A stretch of DNA of 60,042 nucleotides, the filler included, from Dirinaria sp. TL-2023a (lineage: Eukaryota): assembly GCA_051941275.1 (NCBI GenBank). It is 3 parts of 3 records of this genome, joined end to end, with 100 filler letters (N's around TTAATTAATTAA, not from the genome) between each part and the next. Parts side by side here need not be neighbours in the genome. Positions count along the whole stretch, not along the records: positions 1 to 19,977 come from JAVEBF010000306.1; 2 more parts are not named here. One strand, given 5' to 3'. Position numbers and translations under genes: made by a program. This document shows positions 1 to 19,977 of this stretch, piece by piece. Within the stretch, counting starts at the first letter, position 1, and each line of letters starts with the position of its first letter. The notes beneath the pieces are model-generated. The model saw only the letters and a list, made by a program, of their open reading frames with translations. It was not told where the DNA came from and did not search any database.

Positions 1-438
1 GCGCGGGCATTGCGGTGGGGTAGTGATTGCTCTTTCGAAGGAGGTGCAGGAGGTTGTTCGAGTTCAGGAGCAGAGGCTTGATCGCCTAGAGGACCAAGAG
101 GGCCGAGAGAGTCATCGACAGCTTCCAGTCGGGTTGCTTGGGCCCCTACACGTCGTGGTGTACGTGGGCCCCTTCCAGCTGGTGACCTAGGTACCGGCGT
201 TTCTGAGAGCGAAGGCTTTTGGGAGGTCTTGGGCTTGTTTTCTGGATATTCTAGACCTCAGCATGGTTTTTGGCGGTGTTGACAGAGAACCGACCTTTCT
301 GATCTGCTTCAGCAGCTTTGTCAAGGTTTGCGGTTGAGCTTGACCTCGAGGGTACATCTTTTGGCATGGGTTAGTGTAGCTTCATGGATATCTGTAGGCC
401 AGCAACGCACCACCCCATGGAGAGTCCTCTGCGTCCAT
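1..438 (-). CDS. VPS5: Sorting nexin Vps5-like protein, 5' part (runs off window start)
   Basis: Not in the ORF track. Manual splicing from ATG at 438 over two short GT-AG introns gives MDAEDSPWG(D)VPSRSSS...PRTPRRVGAQATRLEAVDDSLGPLGPLGD...PPAPPSKE, resembling the N-terminus of filamentous-fungal Vps5. PX/BAR domains lie outside the window. Confidence 0.65.
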
Positions 439-951
439 AGCAGCGGCGATTCAGATATGTTGCAGCTAGTATCGAGGCTTCGAAGTGTAAGTAGCAATTG
501 ACCACTGGAGAAAATGAACGTCTCGACGATGCTCGGCGATTGGGCGCGATGCGGAGCGAACTCGACGCTAACCCTCGGTCTTCTCTTTTCTCTATCAATC
601 CGTCCACTTTATTCTCTAATAACATAACCATCCTATCAATAATCCATGAATCACGGATCTACTCCTAGCGTATCTAAGCGTTATTTCTGAAGAGGTGTGA
701 TCTCACAGATTGTCCAAACGGTCTCCTTGTCGCCCTTGAAGCACAATTGGAAGAAGCCACTTCATACCACGATGGGCAAAACATACCTAGGCTGAGTATT
801 AATTCTTACTTAGCACTGAGGTAATGTATTTTCTAATTGATTGCACCATGGGTTTTGTCGCTATTCTATTCCATTCCTAGGCTGCTATTATGGATGGCTA
901 CATATATCCCGTACATCTGAACCAGTCAATTAGATCATTTATGATTCTTCA

Positions 952-2733
952 CTACATTGGATTCTGACCCTTCCGGTCTCGCTGATCCTCCCATTTGCAT
1001 CGCTTACAGACACATTGACCTCCCAATGCTCCCATCGCCCATTCTCTCCTATCCTCGACGGGCAAATGCACGTCACAGTAATGGCTGAGGATTTCCTCGC
1101 CTTCTCGGATACCTTCGTGGCACTTCTCCTGAGCAGGACCCCACCGCACCACATCTTGCCCACCTCTTGCCTCAAATTTAATATTACCAGCCCATTCCCA
1201 CTTGACATTAGGAGCACAGCTATGGTTCGCCAAGCACCACAGCGGGTGGACAGCAGCTACTTCCGGCCCTCGAAACCTCGAGGCCGAGGTACTGAAGCGT
1301 GCACTGGCAGTACCTCGAAATTTGGCGTACAAGGTGTTGATAACCCATGTCTCACTGAGCTGTGAGGTGAAGATGTTGACATCCATGCGCTCCAGCATGT
1401 GTAGTGGACCTGAGATATTATTGTGGAAAGTAAAAGGCAGCTGGCGGACTGGTTCACACTCGATTGCATCAGAAGGCGGAGGACTGAAGTCACCCCACAG
1501 GTAACTCGTCTCTGAAAGGTCCAGAGGATGCACATTCTGTGTTTCAGCCATAGCAAAAGTCCGGCCTAGCAAAGCAAGGTAGAGTGCTGAAGATGAAGTA
1601 GCGGGTGACGGATCTTTAGTGAGAAGATCAAAATCAGATTTGCCGCATATTGCCGGGTGGTACATTTTCTGCGCAAGACCGGCACACATTTCAGAGCAGA
1701 ATATTGTATCTTCACAGTCAGGACAGTGTGGCAGCGCAGAAGAACACGGTGCCTCTGGTAGCAGCGCTGAGCAAGCGTCACAGAGCGTGTCATGGAGACG
1801 ATTGTTGGTCGTCAAAAGAGAGCGTTCTTCAAGAATGGTCTCGTAAGGTGCAATATCTGCAGTTGCAAAAAGACCAAGTTGCTTGACGAACCTGCGCTCA
1901 GACACGGAAAACTCGTTGTGATTCGTCATCTCGTCAATGCCAGGCAGCTTGCTTTCGAGTGATGGAAGCAAGACTGCACGAACTTCACATTTTGGAGCTG
2001 CTATAGCGAGTCGCTCATTAAGCTGACGTAGATTAGTCATTGAGAACCGGTCAGGCTCATGTTCATTCCAGGGGTAGAGTTCTCGGCGCACTGAACCTTC
2101 CTCGGGCAGATCAGTTAAAGGATTGAAGGACAGTTCCTGATCTTTTACTGAAGTTTGGCCTGCTTCTATTCCATGGAAGCTGGAGCCTTGCTTTGATATC
2201 CGCTTGCAATATTGCTCAACAATGTGCGCTCGATGGATACGAAACATCTCTATATGCGGGAAGGCCTCTGATCCTCGAGCTGCAAAATCGTAGGCTGTTT
2301 TAAGGCACCCACACTTCGAAAGCGACAAAGCTAATAGCTCGTAGGAACGAGAAGCTATCTCATCCGCCATGAGTGTACTATCCATGCCGGATACTGCCAC
2401 TTGGTCATTATGATAAATTTGCTTGTCAACCCTATCCGCAGAGATACAATTAGTTGATCCATCGATTACGCTCCCTTCACGTTGTATTTGTGACGGATTG
2501 GTCGCAAGCTCGACAGATTTGAGAACCTCTTCGTGATATTCGCCCGACTCGTCGCGAAGCTCATCACTCAACAGAAGAGCTTTGTATACATCTCCAGCTG
2601 CAAGATCCGGGAAGCCATTGATTTCGTACCATTCCGCTCTGAGCAGATGATTATTGGGCAAGTAAGGATTTCCTTCAATATCTTTGTTGATTGCGAGCAG
2701 GTCTGACAGTTGAAAGCCGTCAATTGAGGCCAT
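952..2733 (-). CDS. SET/MYND (SMYD-like) domain protein, putative lysine methyltransferase
   Basis: 593-aa ORF with split SET domain (GLFATADI...NHSCAPN...EEILSHY), inserted Cys-rich MYND-like finger (CDAC..CPDC..FCSEMC..H..C) and post-SET CVCKRC. Confidence 0.85.
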   Translation of the reverse strand: MASIDGFQLSDLLAINKDIEGNPYLPNNHLLRAEWYEINGFPDLAAGDVYKALLLSDELRDESGEYHEEVLKSVELATNPSQIQREGSVIDGSTNCISADRVDKQIYHNDQVAVSGMDSTLMADEIASRSYELLALSLSKCGCLKTAYDFAARGSEAFPHIEMFRIHRAHIVEQYCKRISKQGSSFHGIEAGQTSVKDQELSFNPLTDLPEEGSVRRELYPWNEHEPDRFSMTNLRQLNERLAIAAPKCEVRAVLLPSLESKLPGIDEMTNHNEFSVSERRFVKQLGLFATADIAPYETILEERSLLTTNNRLHDTLCDACSALLPEAPCSSALPHCPDCEDTIFCSEMCAGLAQKMYHPAICGKSDFDLLTKDPSPATSSSALYLALLGRTFAMAETQNVHPLDLSETSYLWGDFSPPPSDAIECEPVRQLPFTFHNNISGPLHMLERMDVNIFTSQLSETWVINTLYAKFRGTASARFSTSASRFRGPEVAAVHPLWCLANHSCAPNVKWEWAGNIKFEARGGQDVVRWGPAQEKCHEGIREGEEILSHYCDVHLPVEDRREWAMGALGGQCVCKRCKWEDQRDRKGQNPM

Positions 2734-2913
2734 TTTGAGAAAATAGTGAACAAGTGAAGTCGGGTTTTCAGTGGTGTTATCTTGGCTGCTCCGCTAGCCC
2801 CCAGGAAGAATCGCCTAGACTTTCCATTGGCCATCCAACGACCATTGAGAAGCAGCAGCCATAAATATTTGCACATGAATATGCGGTTTTATCAGCATTG
2901 TGGGGCGACAAAT

Positions 2914-4101
2914 TTATTCGGCAAACAAATTTGTTTTGCTCGAAAATTGAGTTGACCCTCTGCTGGAGCTGCCGCTGATATTCGAATTAGATTCTGGATA
3001 GAATGAAGCGTTTTGTTCACGATACTGATTTCGAGCTGAGGCCTCTCCTGCGCGGCGAATGGCTTCAATCTCATCATTAGAAGCCCTGGTTTGTACTGCG
3101 ATGGCTTCCATCTGCAACCGCTCCGCTACCACCAGCTCAGCGCTGGAAAAAGAAAATTTTGCGTTAAATCAGAGACTCACCTTCTGTGATGGGGGCTGCT
3201 TTCAGCACCAAGGCTGCCTGATTGAACATGAAAATGTTTTCTGAGAAGATGAAGTGCTTGCCAAGTAGAAGGTCAAATGGCCCATGCTCCGCCACGAGAA
3301 AGCCTGTTTGTCGAGTCTTTGAAGCATTATTAGCATACCAAGTAATGTCTATCGAACCCTTGGCCTCAATGGTCTGTCCTCCAAAACCGGTGTATCTTTT
3401 CTTCTGAGTGGCCTGGACTATGCCATTGGTTATGTTTGCTCGATTGACAATGTCTAGTGAGATCCAATTATCGTCACACCCACTATCAAGGATTCCACGA
3501 CCAGCGATCCACTGAGGACCATCACCAATCCCACAAAATATCGTGGCATCGAACGCGGTAGGGTCTAAGGGAGATTTGCGACCTTGACTTGGAGTGATGG
3601 TTCCTGGCCTGTCCGAGTACAGCTGTGCAAGCTCGTGTTGCTGGTTTCGCAGCAATTGATGAGTCATACCGCTTGATATATAGTTAAAACAAAGATGAAT
3701 CGGTTTTCATAAGGCCGCGATACGTACTCCATGATGATATCGCGTAGGAGCGAAACCGATTGCTTGAACTGTTGCAGAGCGTGCTCGAGAGGGGCAAGCG
3801 CTATCTTGTCCTTAGGCCCTGTTGCAGGCGTCTGCTCGCCCTTGCTCATTAGGTTAGCGATTCTAAGAGCTCTACCATAGCAGAGTCCGAGGCAACTTTG
3901 CGCGGCTGGTGGCATAGTGCCTCGGAATGCCACCATCGTTGAATACATTTCATTTAAAATGTCAATATAGACCGGTATATCGGCCATTGCATCTTGGACA
4001 ATAGCCCCCCACTTGTCATTCCTTGATGCAAAAGTTTTCTGGATCCTCAATAGCTGCTGCGTTACGGCGACAAGGCCAGCGGTCATTGAGACTGGATCCA
4101 T
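2914..4101 (-). CDS. Protein with HeLo-like/STAND-type N-terminal helical domain fused to a retropepsin-like aspartic protease domain (~358 aa, 3 exons)
   Basis: Exons 4101-3728, 3671-3181 and 3125-2914, joined by GT-AG introns 3727-3672 and 3180-3126, give 1077 nt in frame. Start MDPVSMTAGLVAV; catalytic-type motif GILDSGCDDNWIS; second retropepsin motif FDLLLGKHF. Confidence 0.75.
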
Positions 4102-4702
4102 GGTCGGTCTAGGAACACCTCTTCCTCAATTCACGGATCTGCCCCAGTTTCGAGTCCTTGATATAGCGACATCCAAAATGTTTATGTGCAGAGGGTGCGA
4201 GTCCCGCAATCGCCTCAATATCGCAGCATCCGAAGGGTAGATAAATACGAGTTACAACAGTTCTACACACAAGCGAAAGAGAGGAAAACTGGAAGGTATT
4301 ATTGTATCATGAATGTCTTTTATAGCATTCTTGGAAGTTAAAAGAAAATATTTACAGCTCTAAGATTAAAGTACTGTAAGTACTCGTACGCACTAGACTG
4401 CCGATTACTCTAAACTTGAGGTGCCCGGGACGCCGAACAACTGAGCGGGCTTATCTGGATACCTCACCTAAAAGACCTCCCGAATGCGGCAAAAGTCTTA
4501 GTGGTAGCCACCAAAGGCGCAACTAAAGCCATTAGAGCCTTCCGAGGTTAGAGCTGGAAGCCCGGAACTGACCCTGGTCTTCCTGATCTATCTACAGCAC
4601 CTTCCAGCAACATGTAAATTCTGCATTCTTCTTCTTCTCCTTCTTCTTCTTTTTCTTTTTCTTCGTGGGCCAGATCCCAATCACCCCTCTCACAGATGGA
4701 TC

Positions 4703-5688
4703 ATGGCAGCCAACACGTATTCAGCATCTCCGCCAAAGCCACGCGGCTACCCGAAGCTTGCTTCTCTCATGGGCCACCATCCCGAAACTGCCATCTTCCG
4801 CCGTTTCGATCACCTGAATATGCTCAACCTTCTCAGCTTGCAGGCTGAGCTTACCCACCTGGAAGTTCGCTTACAAGACATACGAAGCGAGGATGAGGTT
4901 TCAGGTGACCCTCTACGGATGCTCCACGCCGTCGATTTTTACGAGATGCGGCAGCCAAAGCGGGAAGGCGATGAATTGCAATGGAGGTTAATGTTGGAAA
5001 TACGAGCGAAGCTGCAAGAGTATAGTACTTTCTTCGTTCTACGTAACTCAATTCCGACGGCAAGTTACTAAGAAGATGCCAGACGCAGCGCTTCTCCAAG
5101 TTTCTCAGCTAGCTAAGCTCCACTCGCCACGGGAGGATGAACTACGTTTCTTAAAGGACTGGCTTAAGCGACCCATGATGGGCGATTCATTCTTAAAAGG
5201 CCGCGAAGCCACTATCTGGCAAGACCGTGAACCCAAAGAGATGGCGTCCCTTATGCCACAAGAATTCGAAGCAGACCCGTTCTCAACCCTCGTAACGACC
5301 AAACTTGTGGATTACTGGGATCGGTTATGGGGCAACAGACGGAAGAAGCCCATCCCAGTTGATCCTGAGAGTGGAATCGTTGAATACGACAACAGGCTCT
5401 TGAACAAGATCAGTATGGGCGCTGGTGTGACGTTGGCTTCAGTGGTACCTAGTGTTAGTGTGCTTATCCTGTACTTCGTTAAAAATCAGATCAAGAGGCT
5501 CGGGCTCTTGATAGTCTTCACCTTCATCTTTTCGGCCTCACTGGCAGCTTTTACAAGCGCCAGAAGGATCGAGGTATTTTCCGCTGTTGCTGGGTAAGCA
5601 ACTTCTTTTGACCTTCTGTGCGTTGAAGGTGCTGACTGTTCTTAGATTCTCGGCTGTCATGGTGGTATTCATTGGCACAAATGATTAA
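4703..5688 (+). CDS. DUF6594-type fungal membrane protein (~291 aa, 3 exons)
   Basis: Family-typical start GYPKLASLM...AIFRRFDHLNMLNLLSLQAELTHLE. Introns 5025-5082 and 5594-5645 give 876 nt in frame. Three C-terminal hydrophobic segments end EVFSAVAGFSAVMVVFIGTND. Confidence 0.85.
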
Positions 5689-6648
5689 GGTGCACGGCTC
5701 TGTTTGTTGTACGAAGTTGATGGCAGAAGCAATAGGAAAGGCGAGAAAGTACTGCTTCGTTTCCATAAGGCATCACCTTAGTGCAATAGCTGCGCTACTA
5801 CCTCAAACGACCAGTTCTATGTCAGCGGCCAAGATCATATCGGTTTAGCAGGCTCTATTAATCACCATAGCGACTACGAGTTGCTTTTTTTGAGGTGCTG
5901 GCGCGGGTGCTCAGAGCACATACTATGTACTCTTACAGAACTCTGCTGCTCATACACCTGGCCAGTTTTGGGATTCTTGTGTGAGTTAGTGCACTCACAC
6001 CCCTTTTTCCGAACTTATGTGTCGATTCCCACGCCTAGTCAATTGACAGACAGTCTCATACTCGATGATGCAGGACCTGTGCATTCGCAGATTGGACAAT
6101 GATAACATGGCATAATCTGAATATCCTTGTCATTGATAGACACTGCATTAGCATTGTTCTCGCACAAAGATCTAAGCTGCGATCGAGTACACTGATTTAA
6201 AGGGATTGAGTCAAGGATATTGATCTTGATAATTTCACTAATGCTAATTTAGCTCGATTTACTTTTTATCGGATGGACATTTTAGAATACAAGTTTCTAT
6301 GAGCAATGGTGTAAAATATTTGGAAATGGAGTGGTGAAATAGTATAAGGGGGTGTGAGTGCAACATCTTCCTTTTTGATGGTAGTCATTTCTTTATCAGT
6401 ACAATCTTTGACAAGGGCTTATGGCTACTTCATATTCAGTGGAACAATGTGTTGACTGTTTCCTATCCCACATAGCACAAGCATGTTTCTCATTAAAGAG
6501 GATTTGAGCCGAAAGTCCGACTTCAGCAGATCCTGTACTCTTCTCTTGAGACTCATAGACAGTGTAAAAATTCTATTACAGTACAACTCTTGCAGTGCAT
6601 GTACGAATGATAGCTGCAGTCACGCACCAAGGTTTCTTCTGTGACTTG

Positions 6649-7948
6649 CTACCACCATTTTTCGAATAAAACGTTCTCTTTCTTCATACCTTCAGCTTTC
6701 CTAAGGACATCAACTACCTCATCAGTCATTGCCGGTGGCCCGCAAACATATGCTACCGTGCTTCCTCTCTCATACTCCGGACCTAGGGAGCTGACCAGAT
6801 CACTGTGTTCAAATCGCCGTTCATACGTCCTCAAAATGCTATCTTGGGCGAATCTATTACCTGCCATACATGGACTAACCTTGTCGATTGACTTAGTGCC
6901 GGTAATATATAGGCTCAGCTCCCTTTCCGTAGATGCCACTCGGTGACTTGCCGGATGGGGAAGAGCAAAAAGGTTTTCAAGTCGATCCAAGAAAAGGATA
7001 GATCCGTTGTTGAATTCAGGTAATCTTCGAACAGAATAGAAGAAAGAGATTCGCCTTGGAGCACTTGGACTCAACATAAGATGTGATAATATAGATATCA
7101 AAGGACTATCAAGAGCAGTCAACATCTGGATTGAAGACATTTCCGAACAGTCCGAATCTCTCCACTACTGAAATAAGACGGAACACCTACTTTATGCCTA
7201 CTCCTCCGGCAACGAACACTACACGACCGATTTGATCTACAGGCATTTGAGGAGGCGGCCAGACAAATTTCCCACCTATACGGACTTTCAGAGGTGCGCC
7301 TACAATTTCTCCTGCAGCCCGCCACAGCCATGCCGCAGGCGGGCTGTGGGGTGATTTTTGGATGGCTAGCTCTAGGTATCCGTCCGGTTCTGAGAGTTGT
7401 GGCTTAAGATTGGCAGGAGTCGATGTGATTGTGAAACCTCCTGCTTGGGCCAAGCCTGGTATATGTAGATCTAGCCATTGGCCAGGATGAAACTGAAGCG
7501 TTCGAACGAGGCATTAGGGACCAATGCACTGGGAAACCCTACAATAGAAAAGGTTGAGACGACTTGCATGTATATCTCCAGAGCTGTGTCCCTCAACCGT
7601 TTCATTATTTAATTGCGAGCGAATCGGCCTCAAACGCAAAAGACGAACGTTCTGGTATATCGTTTCGACCTTAGATAAAATCACATTGTGGACTGCGTTC
7701 TGGCGTGGATCTGCCGCTGTCCGTTGCTCATGGGACGTTCGAAGTTCTTCGTCCCCATTTTGTAACCCTTTCGCTGCCTCCATTTGCAGATTTGAGCCAT
7801 CGTTTCCGCGTTCGGCTTTCGACCTGAGCATCCTGGATTGAAAATGGGTACAAATGCTTGCTCTTCGAAGCTTGGGCAAGTAGAAGGCGCAGCCAGAGCC
7901 AAGTTGCGATACCTTAGAGATTGGAAATGGGGGCCGTTGAAACACCAT
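6649..7948 (-). CDS. Ferredoxin-NADP reductase-like FAD/NAD-binding oxidoreductase (OXNAD1-like), 3 exons
   Basis: Spliced product has FHPGQWLDLHIPG, GGFTITSTP, VFVAGGVGINPLISIL, YVCGPPAM and terminal FEKWW. Start codon uncertain. Confidence 0.85.
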
Positions 7949-8163
7949 TGATTGTTACAAGGCTGTGAAATTCATTTTAGAAATATCGGAAATCCTACAC
8001 TTCGAAAGCAATCGAATAATGCAATCATTCAGAGACCTTAACCTCGGATTCATGCTTTTTTCATAACTCCGGTAAATCCGATCTAGCCTACTGAAAAGGT
8101 ACGTTAAAGTAATTCCCAATTCCATTGTGTCGTGCTTCTAGTGCCCACGCTCCACGGAGTGCT

Positions 8164-9316
8164 ATGCCTCCACTATCGTCTCATCTTACATGTCTCCAGC
8201 ATGCAGCTCGGCGACGTTTGGACTTGCATATTCCATATCAAGCTCATCTAGCGTGTAGAAAAACGCTGCGCCGCCTAGAGTCGAGCTCAACGTCTTCAAA
8301 CCTCGCCACCACCGCAGTCATTGCTCCGCGTTGGCTGTCGGAGCTCAAAAATCGGATTGGAAAATGCATTATCTTCGGCCTCAAACCTGTTCAAGTGGAC
8401 GAGGCAGGTCATATTCTAAAGATCCTCGCCAGGGATTGGAGAACTCTACTCGCAGGTAGCGAAGGCTTCTTAGTCGGCCAGAATAGGGCGGGCCTGGAGA
8501 GACATAAAGTTGTTTGGGGAGAGATGGTAGGTCAAGAAGCTCCTGAAGCACCGCTTCCTGTCCTTTTCCCTGATCATATTGGTCACAATAAATACTGAGT
8601 GAAGTAATTCAGGATGTCATGGTATGCTACCAATATTCCTGGACTGGCGCCGGCTTGCTGCAATACTGAATTACTCAAGGGTATTGTTTAGTTCTCTTGA
8701 GACGCCCAGAACCATATCTGATATTGCCGTAAGGTCATGTGAACAACGTGGTTTACGTACGATATGCGGAGTCAGCCCGTGTAAACTGGATACGAAATAT
8801 CGCGACGCAAGACCCTGTCAATAAGCAAAAGTGGTCTGAGTTGGTAACGTCCAAAGGAGACGGTCTCATCCTGAGGAGTATCAAGACAGATTTCAAATTT
8901 GTGCGCCATTTTCAATACTACCGCCCTCTTGGGCGTGTCCTCTGGTCCTCCGCTGACAACCGGGTCAGCCAATGTTTTGGCCGGACCATATATCGGTCTA
9001 TCACAAGCTTCGGTCGTCGCCGACTCATTCTGCAGAGTCTTTCAACCTTGACGTGCTAATCCTTTCGGATCGTCACCAGCGCGCTGCTGCGCGCTGCATA
9101 GAAGATATACTTGTTTATGATTACAGACGTGGATCGAAGATTCAACTCCCGCCGTTTATGGTCCAAAAATTCACAGAGATGTGGAGAGCGCAGGAAGAGG
9201 CAAGAAGCTGTAATGAGAATAGAATAAAGGTACTACACGAAATGGTCAGGCAGCTGGAGAAAGAGAGCTGGGACAAGAAGGGCGCAGTAGAAGATATGGG
9301 CGATGGGGGATTTTAG
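8164..9316 (+). CDS. Thioesterase-like (hotdog fold, 4HBT-type) protein, probably mitochondrial
   Basis: Spliced motif VVWGEMDVMGHVNNVVYVRYAESAR, then GLILRSIKTDFKFPMFWPD. Introns 8527-8612, 8622-8679, 8681-8733, 8901-8968. Arg/Ser-rich N-terminus. Confidence 0.85.
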
Positions 9317-10521
9317 ATCATACGATCGGCTAAGGAAACGCACCAACGAAGGATTAACTATTCACGAAAAGTCATGAGTTTGGGTGTATGCGGTTGAGCG
9401 AATAGGCCAAAGTCTTGGTACGGAAGGAGTGCGTTGCAATGTAGGTATTTGATACCTAAGGTACCTCCTAGTATGGAAGTACCTTATACAGAGAGTCAAC
9501 TTGGGCCTAGCCTTCATTATTGGACGCTTGCGTGGATTACTAAGTTAGGTAGGTAAGCTCGCCTTGTGCATCGGAAGGTCTGGCAGCTTTTCCGTCATAA
9601 TCATATTGGACGGGATAGAACAATACCTTCAAGTAGAGGTAAAGTTTAGGCGTGCTCGGCGAGCTGTGCCGCATGTACCGCCAGCCGATATGCTGGTCGT
9701 AGTACATTCCAAAACATTGACGCCTCACTTAAAGCCTCATCATAACCACTTCGTGAGGCAGTATTATCAAAGTTTGGTCCTCTACAATGTCATGGTGAAG
9801 GCCATACACAGTACGGAGGAGGGAGACACGGACCCTAGCGAGCCAGAAGTAGTAATGAGGGGTTGGAAGCTGCAGCGCTCCGGGAAAGCTTCTGCTGAGA
9901 CTAAAGCATGAAATAAACCTACCAAACGTGTGACGAATTTCGATCGGCGAATGAAGCTGCAGCAAATTGCGTGCCCCGTACGCTTCGTACTTTGAGAACA
10001 ACTAAGCTTATCCCTCGCCATCCGGAGGCTGATGCTTGGTTATTCGCCTCAAGCCTACGTAAATAGCGCCTTGAAACAGCGCACAGCGATCATGTGTGCT
10101 ATATGTGTCGCGCACCAAAGCACCTGTACTTGATAAATGATTCTCTTGCTCGTTCGAAATCTAGACTACGAGACTTTAACTTCAAAAAATAGCTGGGTAC
10201 CTTAAAGTAAAGTAAGGTAGGTACGCTCGGTACGTTAGGACGTCAAACTTACCTAGGGTTCGGCTATGACTAACCCTAGGACAGCCTGGCACTCTGATTT
10301 CGGTAAGAGACATCTTTACAGGCGCAAACTCGACTTCAACCTCAAGCAACACCAAACGCTCTGACTTCGCGCGCGTACTCTTCAAACCACCATTCAGGAT
10401 CTCTGCGCCGGTCGCTGCCGCCAGCAATTTGTGCCTCCTTTGATACACAGATCTTAATGACCGCCCGAGGGTTCCGAGGGAGCGATCTGGCTGGGACCAG
10501 GCCGTAAGAATTTGCTGCTTC

Positions 10522-13416
10522 ATGCCCCGAGGAGCAAAGAAGACCGCACACCAGCACAACAGTCGCCATGAAAATGGAGTCGTCGCTCCTGGCAAGAGAA
10601 TAACGAAGCAGAAATCGAATGGCAACATCGACGCGAGTGCAGAGGGAAGTCCACGCACTGGAGCTACACCCTCAAGCTCCTCAGTCACTCAACCGTCTGT
10701 GCAGGTGCTTGATAGAACCGCAAACAGTCTACCGGCAAGCATCAAGAATGGTACCCGGACCGCCGATCAGTCTGGGAGCAGGGATTCAGGGGACGTGTCC
10801 GAGGACGCGGAGCCTCTTGCTACTGGGCCCACTAACGGTGTGCCGGAGCACGGTCACCGCAGAATCGACGTCAATGCTGCGAAAAGCCCGAATCTTCACG
10901 AGAAGGGCGTAATGAGCCTAGCGCTTACCATATTATGGTCTTGCCCGATCGCGGACACTATCGCTATTCTCATCTTCCTGCTCGCCCTGCCTCCAACGTT
11001 CCTCGCTCTCACAAACACACTGTTCGCTATTCTTACCTTCATGCCATCAGCAAGTTCCCTATCATCCTTTCCCACGACACTCAACGACGTCTTCCAGGGT
11101 TCTGGTGGCGCTCCCTCGCTGGCGACTATCATCTTGACAGACCTCATAGGCTTGGTTCTCTGGCTTGTTGTGTGGACGCCAGTGCAAGTATTGTCTCTGG
11201 AGCTTGCGCAAGCAGTAGTGGCCACAACTCTCGGTGGCGGCAATTCAGTCAAGAACAAAGGCTCAGACAATACTTTCATCTGCATGGGTCTCGTGGTCGT
11301 CAGTCATGTTGCTCGACACAAATGGATACCGAATCGATTCTTTGGATATGACTGGTCTGTTCGCTTGGCTTCGTTATCGAATATGTCTTTGGGACAAGCA
11401 TCATTTTCAAGCAGCGATGTAGTTACAAGCCGCACCTACGCGAGCTGGTTTCGACTTCTGATTACTTTGCATATTTTGATACAGGGCCTGGTGCATGTCG
11501 TCAGGCGGTGGTACGCTCGAAAAGAGCACAAGCGACCTACATCCAGCAACAAAAGATCAGATCCAGAGGCTACCATTGAATCCCCAATCCGTCCGGAAAC
11601 TATACCCCCAGGTAGCCCTGGCCTTGCAACAAGTGCACCTCAAGACCTTGCAGCCCGGTCATCGTTACCCAATATGAGAGAACCACGGGATAAGACCGCG
11701 AGCAACAAAAAGAAGAAGAGGCAAGGGACTTATGTCAGGAGCCAGCAACCACTCTGGGCCGCTTTCGCTGCTACAAAAGTCACAATCTGCCGAGAATTCG
11801 ATCAATCTAAGGTGCTCCAAGAGGCCAGTGGTTCGAATGCTACAGACACCAAGAATCTTGGCAGTGCCCCGTTTCTGGACCAGGAATGTCAAGTGTGGAT
11901 AACTAATGTACGATCAAGAAGCTTCTCTTTTGACACAAGCCATTTTGCTAGCCATGTCTCCGAGAATGACTCCACAGCTGGCGCTGCGAAGGCAGCGATA
12001 GACCGTTCAAAACCGTTCTATATCCGCGTGAACGGAGCTCATTGGACGTCAGCCACAGTCGAGCGGCTACCGAAACACCAAACAAAGGACGACAGTGCGG
12101 AAGAGCATTGGACAGGCGAGGTTTTCGGACTCTCGCCATCGTCTAGCTATATATGCAGCTTCGTCCGAAGCGAGGATGATGTGGAGATATTCACTACGAG
12201 CCTCTCCACTCAATCCTCGCCTATGGTCGATAATGGTATGCAAATTGAAGCCATTACGACTGCACAGCCACTAAAATTGCCAGCAGAAATGTCCGCTCTT
12301 GCAAACTCGCCTCTCCAACCACATCGTCCAGCCTCACCAACTAGTCCTACGACTACCCTCAAAAATTCGATCGCGGCGTGCGAGACGAGTCTCACAGAGT
12401 CACAAGCACGGCATAAGCGTGGAAAGAAGGACAGCAAAGCATTGACTTTGTCAATGAAAAAGGAGATCGAAAGCTTTACTACCAAAATCGCAAAACTTGG
12501 GGGCGATGACAAAGCTCAAACCTCACGCCAACTGCAGTGGAACCAACACATGCGTCAGGCAGACGAGGCGGTCGCCGCAATCTCTAGCGAATTGGATTCC
12601 ATGGGTTCTGTGCCGGAAGACGATGCAAAGCAGTGGCAGCAGGCGAAGAGCCAATGGGAATTGGAAAAGGATAACCAGAACAACGCAAGAGACGAGCTTT
12701 TCCGCTGCAAGGATTCCGCCCATCAGGAGAAAGCTGCCGCCCAAGCCGAGGGCACTTCAACGCAACAGAAGCGTGACCGGCTGACCACACGTGTACAGAA
12801 GCTCAACGAACACCGTGAACGACTTGTATCAGCTACTACAGAAGGTCTCAGCGAGAAGGAGCGTAGGGAAGCTGAAATGGCAGCCAAATCTGCAGACCGT
12901 CGCCAATTTGAAGAAAAGAGCCAGGAACAGGCCAACAATATCCAAAGATCCATTCAGGAAGCCCAGTTCAACGCCCAGCAAGCGTGGCAACAAGCTCAGG
13001 TTCTCCAAAACGCGTACCAGCAGCAGCAAATGGTTAACTCTACCAATGACGAGCCGACCACACCTGAAGGTAATATCCCTGGTACAGTACCATCGACTGC
13101 CTCCGCCTTCCGATTTCCCGGGTTCACGTCAGCAGACCCAAGCACCCTACGAGGCGGCGCCCCGGGATCTCAACGGTTCGATGCACGCCCTCGATCGACA
13201 TCTGCTTTCTCTGGTAACAGCTTGTATACTGAGTTCGATGATCAAGATCCTGCACCGCCCATGCCGTCTCTCCGACCGATTGGTAAGCTGAGAGCTCGAA
13301 AGACAAGCGGTAGCAGTGGTAGTGGAAGCGGTGGTAGCCAGCGTGATCCCATGAGCCCCGTCGGTGCTTTTCGGCCTAGCCCTGTGGATAAGCGATCGAG
13401 TCCTGTATGGAATTGA
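10522..13416 (+). CDS. acrB: Ubiquitination network signalling protein AcrB-like (TM segments plus coiled coil)
   Basis: Start MPRGAKK...ENGVVAPGKRITKQKSNG, hydrophobic block CPIADTIAILIFLLALPP, QQPLWAAFAATKVT, long C-terminal coiled coil. Probable in-frame intron 12236-12283/12286. Confidence 0.8.
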   Translation: MPRGAKKTAHQHNSRHENGVVAPGKRITKQKSNGNIDASAEGSPRTGATPSSSSVTQPSVQVLDRTANSLPASIKNGTRTADQSGSRDSGDVSEDAEPLATGPTNGVPEHGHRRIDVNAAKSPNLHEKGVMSLALTILWSCPIADTIAILIFLLALPPTFLALTNTLFAILTFMPSASSLSSFPTTLNDVFQGSGGAPSLATIILTDLIGLVLWLVVWTPVQVLSLELAQAVVATTLGGGNSVKNKGSDNTFICMGLVVVSHVARHKWIPNRFFGYDWSVRLASLSNMSLGQASFSSSDVVTSRTYASWFRLLITLHILIQGLVHVVRRWYARKEHKRPTSSNKRSDPEATIESPIRPETIPPGSPGLATSAPQDLAARSSLPNMREPRDKTASNKKKKRQGTYVRSQQPLWAAFAATKVTICREFDQSKVLQEASGSNATDTKNLGSAPFLDQECQVWITNVRSRSFSFDTSHFASHVSENDSTAGAAKAAIDRSKPFYIRVNGAHWTSATVERLPKHQTKDDSAEEHWTGEVFGLSPSSSYICSFVRSEDDVEIFTTSLSTQSSPMVDNGMQIEAITTAQPLKLPAEMSALANSPLQPHRPASPTSPTTTLKNSIAACETSLTESQARHKRGKKDSKALTLSMKKEIESFTTKIAKLGGDDKAQTSRQLQWNQHMRQADEAVAAISSELDSMGSVPEDDAKQWQQAKSQWELEKDNQNNARDELFRCKDSAHQEKAAAQAEGTSTQQKRDRLTTRVQKLNEHRERLVSATTEGLSEKERREAEMAAKSADRRQFEEKSQEQANNIQRSIQEAQFNAQQAWQQAQVLQNAYQQQQMVNSTNDEPTTPEGNIPGTVPSTASAFRFPGFTSADPSTLRGGAPGSQRFDARPRSTSAFSGNSLYTEFDDQDPAPPMPSLRPIGKLRARKTSGSSGSGSGGSQRDPMSPVGAFRPSPVDKRSSPVWN

Positions 13417-14354
13417 TTCTGGTCTCTGAGGCGCGCTCTGCCAAGCATTCATTCCAAGCAGTGCATTTAGGTAAAGCAATACATCTTAGATCTTCTTTGC
13501 TAGTCTTCGCCAACATCGTTACTTGCCCAGTGCTCGACTATTCGCATGAGTATACGAGCTCGTCTAAGAAATGCTTTTGATTTTGTTGTCCATAATCTGT
13601 TCATCTGACATGTTCGAGATGCATTGATCCCTTATGTTGGTTGCGTTCATGTATGCTTCCATTCATCACCGTAAGCGAGGCTGGTTGTTCGCTTGCCCTA
13701 ATGTATCGATCCGCAACATTTTACGAGTCCATGCCTTAATCCAATGTCCTGCCAAATTCCAGATCCCCCTTTTACAAAACGCCCAATCCTGCGCCCTTAG
13801 ACAATCCGAGGACCTTGCATCTCATGAGACCATTACGGTCTACTTGAATCTAGAATGAGCAAGAGCAATGCCGTCCGCGCCTTCCCAGGTCCGGCCCTGC
13901 AAATCACACAACGTCTTAGTCAAACCAGCTCGGAAGAAGTCATCTGGTGAACATGATCAGCGGAGGCCTATCCAAGATACATCTCTGCTTACGTTTCCCG
14001 GAAATTTCCATTCTCACCGCCCCCCTATCTCATCGTCGTTGAAGAAACAACAGCTTCCTACACAGCTTGACTTATTCTCAGTGCGGCAAGGTACGAAACA
14101 TATACCAGGTAAATCCAACCCCTGGCATCAGAAACTTCTAGTTTAACCGGATAGTAGGAGCTGCGGCTTGGGGACAGCAAAGCAAGCATCACACAAGGGA
14201 CCTTAATTTGCTGTCAGCTAAGCAAGATTCACTTGAATCATTGCCAACAATTCACCCAGCCAACAGATCCAGTTGCAGGAATTTACCTTCACTCGAGAGT
14301 TCATTATCGCCCGCGAAACCGTACTCGGAAAAATCGATTATAGGAGCCGAGAGC

Positions 14355-15290
14355 ATGGGGAACAACGTCTCTTCGATAATGAAAAAAGATAGGAAACGGC
14401 AAGCAGACTCTCCAGAAACCGACATCACCGACGACGGCTGTTCAGCGCCCAGCCTGCTGCCTACACCTCACAACATTTCTCCCCTTCGAGTACTGCTTCG
14501 AAGGGCGAGTGCTTCGACACTGCACCTACCTAGCAGCAGGCGGATGGACAAAAGAGAAAATTCTCCAGCAAGGCTGCCGAAGGTCCAAGAAGATCTTCTA
14601 GCGGACCCCGACAGTACGCCTATCGTCTCTCCTATTCCTCAGCCCGCCAAACCTTCAATTGCCCTCCCGAACCTTTCGCTATCAGCGCCCAGCCCAGAGC
14701 AAGGCGCTGCCACCGAAGATAAAGTTCCCAACCAATCCCTACCCGCAACAGCCCCGACATTGTCTCCGCCGTTATCCTCGTCTGCTTTGTCTCCACCACT
14801 GTCGGTGAACATACTGTCCCGGCCATCATCTGTCAACTCACAATCACGGTCGAGCATCTACAGTCCTTTCACAAAGCCGCGCACGCCTGTTACAATCAAA
14901 GCCCCACCCATAACGTCGATTCACTACAGCTGCTATCAGTCTCACTCCCGCGTGTTCAAGTTGCCAAATAAGCACTATCCCGTCCCTTGCATGGTTTGCA
15001 AAGTGGACAATCGAGAACAGAGATGGAAATGCACATGGTGCTGCCTTAGGATATGTACGGATTGCATGGAATCTTTGAAGAAGATCGAGGGAAGGACTCT
15101 GCGCGATCTCGTGCGAAGAATGGAGCAAAAGAGAGAGAACCACTGGACGGCGATGGGAGGACAAAATTCTCGAGTGGAAAGCCACGGTGTTGCGCATCTT
15201 GAAACAAGAAAAGCCGGGAGCAGCAGCGCAACTATCACCAGCAGTGATGAAGCGAAACAGCTGCGTAAAATGGGTCTGACAAGAGTATAA
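14355..15290 (+). CDS. Hypothetical protein: Pro/Ser-rich linker plus C-terminal Cys-rich zinc-finger-like domain
   Basis: First ATG of the ORF gives MGNNVSS. C-terminal CYQSH...CMVC...CTWC...CTDC pattern. Confidence 0.7.
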   Translation: MGNNVSSIMKKDRKRQADSPETDITDDGCSAPSLLPTPHNISPLRVLLRRASASTLHLPSSRRMDKRENSPARLPKVQEDLLADPDSTPIVSPIPQPAKPSIALPNLSLSAPSPEQGAATEDKVPNQSLPATAPTLSPPLSSSALSPPLSVNILSRPSSVNSQSRSSIYSPFTKPRTPVTIKAPPITSIHYSCYQSHSRVFKLPNKHYPVPCMVCKVDNREQRWKCTWCCLRICTDCMESLKKIEGRTLRDLVRRMEQKRENHWTAMGGQNSRVESHGVAHLETRKAGSSSATITSSDEAKQLRKMGLTRV

Positions 15291-15441
15291 GTATGCTTCT
15301 CGTGATGGTGCAATAATGGCTTGAAGGATGAGCATCGCTGTTGCACTAGTTTTTGTTTGGTGGACATGGCTGAGGATTAATGGCTGCCGAGCTCGCAAAA
15401 AGTAACCTTACCGTTGTATCATTTTTGGACAAGCTTCGAAG

Positions 15442-16340
15442 CTACCTGTCCTGCTCTTGTTTTTGACTCTCACCGGTACCCATTACGTTGGTGATGAAGT
15501 CTTGATACCTGAATACCTCCCCTCTAGGTGCTCCGCATATGCCCTTGGCAAACTCTCTCCGGCCTTTGAAGCCATCAATGACTTGGTCGATATCTCTCTC
15601 ATCCAGCGGCCGTTCTCCACCCGCTGGACTCGTGTGCAACAGTGCACCTCGGAGCTCTTTCACATCTATTTGGCCGCTATCGTCTTCGTCAAAAGCCGCA
15701 AATGCGTTGGCTAGCTCCTGCTGAGAAGACAAGGGCGCAAGCAGCGAGGAAAGCGTATGTAAAAAGGATGGCATATTGAGCGTCTGGGGGGCGCCCGGGG
15801 GGAAGAATTGCGCAACTGTGGAAGGATTCGCCTCTTGACCTGCGGCCTTCTGTCAGTATAAGAGTGCATGAGTAGCTATCTATCGGATGAATTACCAAGG
15901 TTTGTGAGCATGTCCACAACGTCTTCCCTCCCAACCTGCCCATCTCCATTCCGATCCAGAACCTGAAAAGCCTCCCGCAATTCTCTAGCCCGTGCAGTTG
16001 GGAGCTTCGAAAGCGCATCGGCATTGACGGGCGCTGGCTTTGCTGTGAGATTCGACTGCATCGATACTGTTCGCGCTCCCCGCGTCGGTGATGCCGGTGG
16101 TTCTCGAGGTGCTATGGATGGGCTCATACTCCGAGGCATCCAGCCCCCCTCACTTGAAATGGGCGTCGATGTATTCTGGAGTTTTGACGGTGATTGGGCG
16201 GGCGTTTGAAGTTTTGTAGGGGAAAGTGGGGAGGATGGCCTTAAAGAGGGGGAGGGCGATTCGGGCCGACGAAAGGGGGAGGTGCGAGGTGAACCAAAGG
16301 ATAGAGGAGAAGGCGACGAGGGCTTGTAAGTCGCCGACAT
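15442..16340 (-). CDS. EF-hand protein, myosin regulatory light chain-like, 2 exons
   Basis: ELREAFQVLDRNGDGQVGREDV and AFAAFDEDDSGQIDVKEL EF-hands after a Ser/Pro-rich extension. One intron at about 15840-15893. Confidence 0.8.
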
Positions 16341-17073
16341 AGCCTGAAAAATAACAGTGTCAACATAACGAGGTAGGCCCTCGTATGGGAAGCCCCCAAG
16401 ATGCGTAAGAGAGCAGGGTCACGAACCATTGCTGGAGAGAGAGAGAATTCAGAAGCGCTTGATTGGGCTGTGGTTACTGAGAGGACTGACAATTGCTGAA
16501 GAGTTCGTAGTCTTTGTCCTGGCCAGCTCAGGTCTGAAATGGATCCGTTTCGACCATAAGTTGTTACCTTACTTTAGTTATCACAGAAGACCCTCAACCT
16601 GAGCGAGGAGTGGATGTAAACAATGCCAAGCTTTGGATTGCTAGCCGGTACGGAGTTTTGCGGAGTTGGCTACCCACTGTAGGTTAGTCCCCCAGAGTGT
16701 CCCCCGACTCCCCCCAGGAATCAGAAACGCGGCCCGCAATTGCTCCCCTGTCGATCTGGACCTTCTCAGGCCTCGGCTTCCGACGACCCCTCGCCATTGC
16801 GGCGGTCAAGCAAATGTGAGAAACAACGGGCCAGGCGATCAGGAGTATGTAGACCTTGCGCCTTCGGCCTTTCGCCTTTTACTTTCTCCTTTCTCCTCAT
16901 AAGTCTTTGACGAAGCATACATACTGTGACGAGTGGTATAATGAATTTCTTTTTATCAAGGCAGGAGCTGGCCCATGTACCCTGATACCGTGCAGCAGCT
17001 AATGCAACGCAGGTTTCCTTTGAATGCCAGCACACCAGTTTAGCAGGACTCTTGTCATACCGAATTGCGAAGC

Positions 17074-19641
17074 ATGACTTCTGTTCTATCATATCGACCA
17101 TCGACAAGCGGAACTTCAGGCACGCACAATCATAGTTTGAACGGCCAGGGTTCATCGTCCTCATTTCCTTCCTCGCGCGCACCATCAAACCCTTCGGTAC
17201 GCAATGCCGTACCCACGGAGAACCCACCGCCTTTGCCATATCGAGGCTCCGCCAGCCGCTCGCGTACTCCTTCTACACCATCCTCCATGATGCCTGCAGC
17301 TCAGCGAACGAACGTCACTGCGCGCGGAGGCAGATTAAGATCGCGGTACCCCGCTGATTCCCCCGAACGGCATGTGGAATATATACTTGTCGCCGCTTTC
17401 CATGTCGACCGAGGACCAATTATGGAGCATCAATATCCAGGAGCAATAAGCGGAGATGAGAATATGCTTGCAGAATTGATGTTGCCCGATCAAGCACATA
17501 TGAGGAAAGAAGATTGGACCATATTCTTTCTACACAAGGACACTAGTGAAACATCGAGTCACCACAGTACTACTAAGCCCCAAAGCAAAAGGCGCAAGCC
17601 AAGTAGGGATGACCAGATACAGACGAACGAGATTGATGAGGACACTGGTGAAGGCAATGAAACGCAAACTCACCCTGGAACGAATACTGACCTCGAGGAA
17701 GAGCTGGAGGGAGGAGAAGGACCGCCGCTGATTTATGTACTCAATCTAGTTAACACAAAAACAGACACTACAGCCAAACGGTCCGCACACTTCGAAGCTC
17801 TCAAAATGTATCTAGCTAATCTTGGTTTCTCCATAGGGGCGCCGTTGTAAAAGCCATGGCCATTTGCACACGCCACTCATTTCTCCACATATATAAGGTA
17901 AGACCGGTACCTTCTTCTCTCGCAGTTGGACCAGGCGCTAATGCCAGAGCAGCCACTTCTACTATTAGCCTTAGAGGAGTACTTCAAATCGCCTTTCCCT
18001 GAGACGCTAGCTGCATTGTATGACGCTGTTAATTCTATGGACTTATCTTTGATGCCTCGATTGTCAAGCCTAGAGCGACATATCCTTTCAGCGAGTGATA
18101 CTAAGGATCTTTTCGTTGAAAAATTTGAGCAGATGATCCAGCAGCGCATGGCTGAAGACTCTAGATCAAATTCCATCGCCTCCCCTGACTCGGTATCGAA
18201 ATCAAACGCAGAGCTCCTTCGTCCTGGACCTCGCTATGTACCTCCCAGGGATACCCATGAGTTCGAATCAAGAGTGATCTACAACCACATACCGGTCCCA
18301 ATCAAAGTTCCTACTTCGCTAGCCCCCGAAACAGTCGGCGATTTCTCCCTGATCAAGCTCATCCAGATCTTTTCGGAACCGCACGCCAAGTCACCCCAGC
18401 CTTTCGCTCTCCATGCGCACCTCACCACGTCCGGACCTCACACGCACCCGATCATAGTACTCATTAATGCTCTTCTCACTCAAAAACGGATCATCTTCCT
18501 GGGTCATAATCGCCCGAGCGGTGAAGTCGCCGAAGCTGTTCTTGCGGCTTGCGCTCTGGCATCCGGCACTATTCTCCGTGGCTTTACGAGGCACGCCTTC
18601 CCTTACACCGACCTCACCAAGATCGAGGATCTGCTAAACGTGCCCGGATTCATCGCCGGAGTAACGAATCCAGCCTTTGCCTCCCATCCTGAATGGTGGG
18701 ACATCCTCTGCGACGTGCCCACGGGGCGCATGAAGATATCTCATCGTATCGACCCAGCACCCGTAACCGACGGTTTTCTCAATTTCCAACAGCAACACCC
18801 AAACTTCGCACCAACCCTCAACGGCTCCGGCCTTTCCTCATCCGGGCCTTCCACTGCGAGCGCCAGCAATGACCCCACCAACGACGCTCTGTTTATCACC
18901 GACATCCTCACCTCCATCACCTCCCGCCACGGCGAATCCGTCATCCGCCAGAAATTCCGCCAATACATCGCCAGGTTCACGCGCATCGCCGCCGCATTCG
19001 AAGAATCCGTCTACGGCGCCTCGGCGCTCTACGTCGGAGCCTCCGACGCCGACGCCGGCGCCCACGGCGTCAAAGGGCACGGGTACGTCTGGGTGGACGA
19101 GAACGCGCGCGGGCGGGAACTCGGGGCCAACGTGTGGCGCATCGAAGGCTGGCGCAACACGCGCAGCTACTACGCCTTCATCCAAGACCTCGCCGCGGCC
19201 TGGGAGCGCTGGCCGATCCGCAGCATCGACCTCGCGCACCAGCACGACCGGCTCCGCTCGCTCAAGCTCTCCCACGACGATTCCGCCGCCATCTACCTCG
19301 CGCTCGCCGCCAGCGTGCACGGCTACGACGACATCTGCCAGCTGCTCACCGTCACGCCCGAGAGCAACGCCGGGCTGTTCTACCTCAGCCTCGGCCTGTT
19401 CCACCCGGAGCGGAGGGTCCGCCAGGCGACTGTCGAGCTGTTGGAGCGCATCAGTCTGCACGAGGCTGGGCGCCATTTCTGGGTGCAGCTGGGCCGGTTC
19501 GCCAAGTTGGCGTTTTGGAGGGTGAAGAAGGAAATGGTGGCTGCGTTGGGGAATGGGAATAGTCCCGTTGACGCCGCGGGCGCAGGAGGAGACGGTGGTA
19601 GTGGTGGTGGGCTGGATGCTAGAGTTCGAGCGGGGAAGTAA
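17074..19641 (+). CDS. mesA: MesA/Afi1-like polarity protein (DENN-related Afi1 + SPA domains), 3 exons
   Basis: [62 protein letters not shown] (after introns at about 17781-17836 and 17898-17950), [23 protein letters not shown]. Confidence 0.85.
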
Positions 19642-19945
19642 AGGCAGAGAGTAGGAACGAGGGAGAAAGAAGGGAAGTTGTAGTAAAGGAAGGGGAAAAG
19701 GAAAAAAAAAGGTGGCGATTGTACTTGCTGGGAATTTTGGTTGGTTGATTGATTGATTGAGTGAGTGAAACGCCTGATGATGATGATAAAAAAAATATTT
19801 TCTTGGTTCGCATGATATGCTATGGCTATGATACCCACGACTTAATCTATACCTACCTTACCTTATCCCTGGGTTTCTGATATATAGCGCTGCAATGTGC
19901 TCTCTCTCTCTCTGTTTTCTGAAGCCCGGGGAATACACCATGTTT

Positions 19946-19977
19946 GGAGGAGGAGGAGGAGGAGGTGGTGGTGGTGG
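19946..19977. repeat. (GGA)n(GGT)n microsatellite at contig end
   Basis: ggaggaggaggaggaggaggtggtggtggtgg directly before the N-linker. Confidence 0.9.

Follow-up and report, generated by a model that had tools for sequence, protein, structure and literature searches.

Two divergently oriented genes of the lichen fungus Dirinaria sp. TL-2023a (assembly GCA_051941275.1) probably form a conserved two-gene module of Pezizomycotina. They occupy positions 2914 to 5688 of the window, by which the whole stretch of 60,042 nucleotides is meant (its positions 1 to 19,977, which include the pair, come from JAVEBF010000306.1). Gene A, on the minus strand, encodes a protein of 358 amino acids (P0001), in which a predicted four-helix head precedes a retropepsin-fold domain; this domain is probably a catalytically competent aspartic protease of the Ddi1/retroviral type. 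Gene B, on the plus strand, encodes a DUF6594 protein (PF20237) with three C-terminal hydrophobic helices. The adjacency of the protease and DUF6594 genes is not a product of chance, and because their head-to-head pairing has been kept in distant fungal lineages with unrelated flanks, the two genes are regarded as functionally coupled. They probably work together in an undescribed pathway, and we put at about one half the probability that, in this conserved divergent module, a soluble dimeric protease has the membrane-anchored DUF6594 protein as its target or docking partner.

Recurrence of the gene pair

Metagenome contigs were scanned with protease-family motifs derived from an alignment of 21 sequences, which gave 13 loci (L001–L013). 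In 12 of these, a DUF6594 homolog is located by tblastn directly upstream of the protease gene and on the opposite strand, i.e. head-to-head; the remaining locus, L009, is only 1,291 bp long and too short to show a partner. Loci L001–L005, from related lichen fungi, are collinear with the window at every neighbouring gene, and L006 is a short contig containing the pair only; the window and L001–L006 are counted as one lineage. Loci L007–L013 have only the two genes in common with the window. They represent three species-level variants of a second lineage (L007, L008, L009 and L010 at about 96% identity, L012 and L013 at 99.9% and L011 at about 70%), and their identity is about 28–32% to P0001 and about 28–30% to the gene B product over long matches. 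A low-complexity, Gly/Pro-rich stretch is present in L011 at about 950–1340.

Further pairs can be recognised from the names of database entries. In Thermoascus crustaceus, the protease-family protein P0017 is VTN00DRAFT_4379 and the DUF6594 protein P0163 is VTN00DRAFT_4378, both listing a longest contig of 4,781,009 bp. Trypethelium eluteriae has P0228 (Q9157_002967, protease) and P0171 (Q9157_002966, DUF6594), both listing a 48,582-bp contig, and Viridothelium virens has P0028 (protease) and P0170 (DUF6594), both listing a longest contig of 57,257 bp. Since the proteins of V. virens and of the T. eluteriae metagenome-assembled genome are identical over the aligned domain segments for both genes, these two were counted as one lineage; the records seem to stem from the same, or nearly the same, organism. 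The clusters P0027/P0226 and P0166/P0227 both list longest contigs of 20,922 and 22,054 bp, one member being from Alectoria sarmentosa. In Cenococcum geophilum both families are present, with identifiers that are not sequential. Other genomes named among the search results are those of Aspergillus egyptiacus, Exophiala bonariae, Parastagonospora nodorum, Lecanora helva, Trapelia coarctata and Xanthoria aureola.

When the closest full-length DUF6594 relatives found by BLASTP are considered (P0170, P0171, P0012, P0163 and P0166), four of the five are co-located with a protease-family gene, P0012 being outside the check. Twenty-five protease-family proteins were looked up and none was shown to be apart from DUF6594, which was judged only where the genome was also among the DUF6594 matches. 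Fungi of at least three classes keep the pair, although protein identity is down to about 30% and the flanks are completely different. Neither the 60-kb window nor the flanking DNA of the loci, covered for up to 10 kb per side, contains a second DUF6594 match. An earlier note on this DNA, made from the sequence by itself, had proposed a functional link between the two genes and had made their adjacency in other genomes a test of it; the 12 loci out of 13 and the name-based pairs provide this adjacency, and the proposed coupling gains from the retention of the head-to-head arrangement in several distant lineages.

Trees and selection

For eight pairs, one tree was built of the protease domain and one of DUF6594; both are small and unrooted, and they contain the same three groups. 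The pair of Alectoria, a lichen fungus, is placed in both trees outside the lichen group of the window, together with the pairs of Thermoascus and Trypethelium. Duplication or movement of whole pairs fits this pattern. Between the two genes, pairwise identities are correlated with an r of 0.94 (none of 10,000 permutations gave a value as high), a correlation that kinship alone can produce.

The ratio of non-synonymous to synonymous substitution rates (dN/dS), taken against L001 and L005, is 0.04–0.19 for both gene A exons and for gene B exon 1, with dS saturated; dS was not computable for gene B exon 2. By this measure, both genes are under purifying selection wherever dS could be computed. 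The dN values of the pair, 0.17–0.28, are similar to or lower than those of the neighbouring genes, 0.23–0.36. Given the collinearity of L001–L005 with the window, the neighbour-like dN and the dN/dS well below 1, the locus does not look, between species, like a fast-evolving recognition locus, and these results argue against the non-self-recognition role considered in the earlier note.

Structure and transcription of gene A

Gene A and its protein contain the following features:

2914..4101, minus strand: gene A, encoding P0001 (358 amino acids); splice sites read from the sequence, and RNA contigs
4101-3728, 3671-3181 and 3125-2914, minus strand: coding exons, whose translation is P0001
3727-3672 (56 nt) and 3180-3126 (55 nt), minus strand: introns, from joints in RNA contigs
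3700..4101, minus strand: N-terminal four-helix bundle, residues 1 to about 133 (AlphaFold2 model, VIA)
3221..3568, minus strand: retropepsin-fold (RVP-like) domain, residues about 160–275 (Foldseek, VIA, family conservation)
3487-3485, minus strand: codon of Asp187 in the L-D-S-G-C motif, a catalytic-type motif
2917..3125, minus strand: C-terminal tail with helices of residues 288–300 and 305–328 in a charged pattern, then a disordered Ser/Asn-rich end (AlphaFold2 model)

The spliced translation of gene A is exactly P0001, the NCBI entry 'hypothetical protein Q9191_002853 [Dirinaria sp. TL-2023a]'. RNA contigs came from three RNA-seq runs of one lichen sample, in which the strain is about 96–97% identical to the window; the sequencing-run search returned only these three runs, which contain 15–19% of the words and give no indication of habitat. 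Both gene A introns are seen in these contigs (joints 3671/3728 and 3125/3181). Since the contigs also join the second intron of gene B, transcription and splicing are established for the two genes alike. In run X2 alone there is also a minor joint, 3370-3457, at which 86 nt of the gene A protease exon are skipped, with a short side of 30 letters; its GT..AG borders read on the plus strand and hence antisense to gene A.

The retropepsin-fold domain

The model of P0001 made with AlphaFold2 (AF2), built on the family alignment, has a mean predicted local distance difference test score (pLDDT) of 83.6. In it, residues 160–279 or thereabouts match the RVP domain of human DDI1 (PDB entry 3s8i_A) with a Foldseek E-value of 4.5e-6 and a target-normalised TM-score of 0.61. 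In all, Foldseek returned 91 PDB matches at E<=0.001, with Ddi1 RVP domains from several organisms and retroviral proteases on top, and VIA gave PDB entry 7d66_B with a Z-score of 11.7 (root-mean-square deviation 2.8 with 101 aligned residues), 2fmb_A with 11.2 and a further match with 10.6. A search of PDB sequences with P0001 gave a match at chance level only (E 0.55). The protease domain is flanked by low-confidence linkers, residues 149–159 and 274–282.

Asp187, Trp236, Phe249 and Gly262, the last being part of the 'LLLGKHF' motif in P0001, are kept in at least 90% of 150 relatives, of which 136 have D[ST] at the aspartate column. The family block can be written approximately as D-P-F-S-F-x-A-T-I ... 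R-G-x-L-D-S/T-G-C ... N-W-I-S ... G-F-G-G ... I-T-W-Y-A ... F-L-V ... P-F-D-x-x-L-G. Asp_protease_2 is matched by 72 of the 150 relatives at E<=0.1 (best 3.1e-14), with its cut-off reached by P0073, P0148, P0150 and P0151, and gag-asp_proteas is matched by 50. An exhaustive HMMER search assigns 396 cluster representatives to the protease family at E<=0.001, a number that falls to 136 at E<=1e-10. The charged C-terminal tail is alignable in the full-length relatives, its pattern of charges being conserved. P0001 itself reaches an E-value of 0.042 with Asp_protease_2 (15.0 bits, for a cut-off of 24.3) and matches no other Pfam family at E<=10. By modelled structure and by family, then, gene A is a retropepsin-fold protein, and weakly so by sequence alone: the protease call of the earlier note stands as to fold and conservation, but not as to the Pfam score, which lies under the cut-off.

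The N-terminal head

In the AF2 model, P0001 begins with helices of residues 3–25, 30–38, 42–58, 65–88 and 102–144, mostly with pLDDT above 87. Many small and hydrophobic residues are present in the first helix, and the long helix of residues 102–144 connects the bundle to what follows, continuing into exon 2. VIA matches of the head include the Sw-5b SD domain (Z 12.1), the Rx CC domain (11.1), MLKL's 4HB (four-helix bundle; 10.1–10.3) and the NRG1.1 CC-R domain (9.4); unrelated bundles score alike, and Z-scores below about 13 are common for helical bundles and may be generic.

No Pfam match was found for the head (residues 1–124), nor one of P0001 to PF17111 or PF17107, at E<=1 and E<=10. 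Four of the 150 relatives match PF17111 weakly, with a best E-value of 0.0012, under the cut-off of 27.2. In the Atlas features search, which retrieves language-model neighbours, 17 of 30 named matches at a score of 0.94 belong to clusters with PF17111 in 16% of their members, and the feature neighbours of the head are fungal clusters with PF17111 or SesA in 13–26% of members. A start resembling 'M-D/E-P-L/V-S', which we take to be typical of HeLo-like domains, is found in 25 of the 45 relatives whose aspartate is preceded by 150 residues or more. Support for the HeLo-like head proposed earlier is indirect, coming from the structural matches, the weak PF17111 matches of a few relatives and the Atlas neighbours; the modelled head is a putative member of the HeLo-like/MLKL-like four-helix bundles.

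The head is not present throughout the family. In the family member P0053 (409 amino acids), a Pkinase domain (E 2.3e-35) takes the place of the head and is joined to the retropepsin domain. The proteases of L007–L013 probably lack the head, because no coding conservation is seen upstream of their protease domain; the short charged C-terminal exon is kept. Its probable absence from this clade makes the head an accessory and not part of the conserved core. In a Pfam scan, neither P0001 nor its 45 longest relatives contain WD40, TPR or ANK sensor repeats or NLR domains.

The DUF6594 protein

The features of gene B are:

4703..5688, plus strand: gene B, DUF6594, 291 amino acids in a homology-based model (Pfam PF20237, RNA contigs)
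4703-5024, 5083-5593 and 5646-5688, plus strand: coding exons, modelled from sequence and homology
5409..5679, plus strand: three C-terminal hydrophobic (transmembrane-type) helices, residues about 217–241, 246–268 and 271–289 (Kyte-Doolittle scan)

As the earlier note had it, gene B is a DUF6594 gene: its two large exons match the family with E-values of 4.2e-20 (73.1 bits) and 1.6e-25 (90.9 bits), for a cut-off of 30. The three C-terminal transmembrane helices described in that note coincide with the hydrophobic segments listed above, the last of which straddles intron 2. The AF2 model of P0170, a DUF6594 relative with 44% identity, has helices in corresponding places (residues 214–242, 246–267 and 272–297; pLDDT 71.7). 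This model, of moderate quality and thus a weak negative, has no Foldseek match in the PDB at E<=0.001, gasdermin included. The Atlas fold search for DUF6594 returned its own family only, plus short helical matches with a TM-score below 0.5 by query.

Intron 2 is confirmed by RNA contigs, which join 5592 (+1 letter)/5646. Intron 1 is spliced in the contigs at 5019/5083, with the donor GTATAG, 5 nt upstream of the in-frame donor at 5025. These tandem GT donors, GA/GTATA/GTACTT, lie 5 nt apart (window 5015-5030, with the acceptor side at 5083), and the 12-nt tandem-donor sequence is identical in L001, L004, L005 and L006, at about 60% protein identity. The corresponding regions in the orthologous loci are:

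L001, 9195-9330: tandem-donor region
L004, 697-832: tandem-donor region
L005, 9215-9350: tandem-donor region
L006, 1-110: tandem-donor region

The second clade is without the tandem donor, a single donor being present in L007 and L013. The tandem donors may serve regulated unproductive splicing. When relatives are compared, the in-frame junction restores the family consensus ...KLxEY/NxALxQ... across exons 1 and 2. Exon 2 is well conserved across species (dN about 0.26 against L001 and L005, near that of neighbouring genes), and from this conservation it is argued that the in-frame form is made. The contigs drop rare variants, and the evidence on intron 1 comes from one sample. Run X2 alone contains a minor joint in gene B as well, from 5453 to the acceptor of exon 3 at 5646, which skips 192 nt and has 30 letters on its short side. 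In public databases gene B seems to lack an annotation, whereas the gene A product is present there.

The intergenic region and neighbouring genes

Between the two genes lies one further feature:

4102..4702, no strand: shared divergent intergenic region of 601 bp, from sequence reading

The head-to-head arrangement and the extent of this region agree with the earlier description. No conserved promoter element was found in it: when the window is aligned with four orthologous loci, this region matches poorly. A purine-rich simple repeat of the GAA/GAG type is located at about 4620-4671, just upstream of gene B.

Among the neighbouring genes, Pfam matches were obtained to SET (E 6.6e-5), to the 4HBT_2 thioesterase family (E 1.7e-7) and to the FNR-like NAD_binding_6 family (E 6.3e-4, below cut-off), in agreement with the SET, FNR-like and thioesterase neighbours named before. 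The open reading frame at the window start (2-190) has no Pfam match. An open frame of 990 codons at 10444-13416 has 62% identity in L001–L005 and no Pfam match at E<=0.01. In positions 1-9000 no mobile-element signature was found: inverted repeats are absent and direct repeats are only short and chance-like.

A possible mechanism

Both proteins would act in one pathway at a membrane. Gene A would provide a soluble retropepsin-fold protein which, here and in most full-length relatives, would have a four-helix head and a long helix before the protease domain and a charged helical tail behind it. Gene B would provide the DUF6594 protein, with a helical and presumably cytosolic stretch of about 215 residues at the N-terminus and three C-terminal helices holding it in the membrane. 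The protease would be active as a dimer, like other retropepsins, and the DUF6594 protein would be its membrane-bound substrate or docking partner; either the protease would cut DUF6594, or DUF6594 would switch it on, within the soluble region adjoining the membrane. The conserved core would consist of the retropepsin domain and DUF6594, with the N-terminal domain an exchangeable, accessory output or targeting domain, which would be a four-helix bundle in most proteins, a kinase in P0053 and apparently absent in one clade.

A 'D-P-F-S' motif common to the start of the protease domain and to DUF6594 was considered and dropped, as its position in the model of DUF6594 is where a helix begins. A complex prediction for P0001 with gene B, the latter entered as its two large exons and family alignments not being used, scored 0.01 against a mark of 0.34, which counts neither for nor against binding.

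Several observations weigh against the proposed mechanism. Contact or cleavage between the protease and DUF6594 is something we infer from the linkage of their genes, and P0001 is under the Pfam threshold for any protease family. The sole form of gene B intron 1 in the RNA contigs is out of frame, with a stop after 10 more codons, and the window's own gene B product was absent from the results of two database searches that found its relatives. In L011 (1445-1943), the DUF6594 partner is recognisable for about 135 N-terminal residues only and is without its membrane part, next to an apparently intact protease gene; the partner may have decayed there. The name-based pairings depend on consecutive locus numbers or equal contig sizes and not on a reading of the DNA; independent lineages are few, the group of the window and four others; and DUF6594 is a large, widespread, multi-copy family.

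Comparison with known systems

The best structural matches of the gene A protease domain are the RVP domains of Ddi1/DDI2 proteins, and the D-S/T-G motif is present in both. DDI2 processes the membrane-bound protein NRF1 (NFE2L1), and the likeness would be that here, too, a soluble retropepsin-fold protease acts on a membrane-anchored partner. In contrast to Ddi1/DDI2, no UBL, HDD or UBA domain is detected by Pfam in P0001, which has the four-helix head instead, and no more than 13–19% of the sequence is identical to that of the Ddi1 RVP domain. The partner also differs from that of DDI2, being a DUF6594 protein encoded next door and not a bZIP transcription factor.

The head resembles the HeLo/HELL (PF17111, now PigL_N), SesA and MLKL 4HB domains in its N-terminal position, its predicted four-helix bundle and the small and hydrophobic residues of its first helix in P0001. 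Unlike HeLo/HELL domains, it is fused to a protease, and P0001 has neither a match to the PF17111 hidden Markov model nor an NLR neighbour; no C-terminal repeat resembling an amyloid motif was noticed in P0001, although no search was aimed at one. In the part of a 2025 review of fungal cell death available to us (PMC12881547), HeLo/HELL domains are linked to the MLKL 4HB, fusions of HELL domains with a kinase or pseudokinase are described, and the gasdermin genes of fungi are stated to lie in clusters with protease genes, of serine and cysteine types, in more than 80% of cases; a fusion of such a domain to a protease is not mentioned, and the words aspartic, aspartyl and retropepsin do not occur in that part.

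Our pair is similar to the HET-Q1/HET-Q2 gasdermin/protease clusters in consisting of two genes, for a protease and a membrane-related protein. The proteases of the gasdermin clusters are, however, S8 serine or CHAT cysteine proteases, usually with repeat or NLR sensors, whereas gene A is of the aspartic type and without such parts, and DUF6594 is an integral membrane protein by prediction, without a gasdermin match in the fold search. DUF6594/PF20237 was mentioned nowhere in the literature searched, which also contained nothing relevant on a HeLo-like domain combined with a retropepsin-like or aspartic protease in fungi; within the reach of these searches, the protease family is likewise undescribed.

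Alternative explanations

The two genes could be neighbours for the sake of their expression, through a shared bidirectional promoter or chromatin domain, with their products in separate processes. In favour of this, the genes lie head-to-head with a short intergenic stretch in common in every readable locus, and both are transcribed in the same sample, but little of the intergenic sequence is conserved when the window is compared with the orthologous loci. Moreover, retention of a pair at about 30% identity, with different flanks and in at least three fungal classes, is usual for genes with interdependent products, and both genes group in the same way in the trees; we find co-regulation without a common process rather unlikely. 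An adjacency arising by chance, or merely inherited without a functional link, is hardly credible. It is true that L001–L005, collinear over all neighbours, tell nothing beyond descent and that DUF6594 is widespread and multi-copy; the pair is nevertheless kept in four lineages besides that of the window, whose flanks are unrelated or unknown, and the DNA examined contained no other copy of DUF6594.

The earlier note had thought of a protease-activated cell-death or non-self-recognition module. In a module of this kind, DUF6594 would be cleaved to give a membrane-damaging executor or, alternatively, the four-helix head would be an executor of MLKL/HeLo type with DUF6594 as guard or receptor. 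MLKL, plant CC and CC-R domains and pore-forming helical proteins are indeed among the structural matches of the head, PF17111 or SesA occurs in 13–26% of the members of its Atlas neighbours, and the four relatives with weak PF17111 matches and the 25 of 45 with the HeLo-like start point the same way. So do the HELL-kinase and HELL-pseudokinase fusions and gasdermin-protease clusters in the part of PMC12881547 cited above, with P0053 as a kinase-retropepsin fusion. Yet matches at Z-scores of 10–12 can be generic for helical bundles, the clade of L007–L013 appears to have the pair without the head, sensor repeats and NLR domains are missing from P0001 and its 45 longest relatives, and among solved folds, gasdermin being one of them, none was matched at E<=0.001 by the model of the DUF6594 relative. 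Both genes are moreover under purifying selection at neighbour-like rates in collinear loci (L001–L005), and they are transcribed together in the lichen sample, with no sign of an incompatibility context, so a cell-death module appears unlikely. A more elaborate scheme, an undescribed aspartic-protease pathway of membrane signalling or cell death, seems to us quite unlikely; in it, the retropepsin would restrain an MLKL/HeLo-like executor as the MLKL pseudokinase does, a DUF6594 receptor would trigger dimerisation and cleavage, and kinase and other domains would be alternative outputs. Finally, the retropepsin might cut its own protein upon dimerisation and free the N-terminal output domain, with DUF6594 as a membrane sensor or anchor controlling dimerisation and not as a substrate. 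Variable N-terminal domains before a conserved core (the four-helix bundle in most, the kinase in P0053, others or none elsewhere) and the low-confidence linkers on both sides of the protease domain speak for self-processing, but the proteins of the second clade seem to have nothing to release, and we consider it very improbable.

Implications

What is new is that the protease gene and the membrane-protein gene paired here both come from unstudied families; the pairing principle is known. DUF6594 is a widespread ascomycete family without an assigned function, for which the retropepsin-fold neighbour is a first testable lead. Should the head be a membrane-targeting domain of the HeLo/MLKL type, it would be the first such domain known to be fused to a protease, and the pair would bring a third protease class, after the serine and cysteine types, to the death-type gene clusters of fungi. 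On a sober reading, the pair would be a fungal parallel to the DDI2-type processing of a membrane-bound protein.

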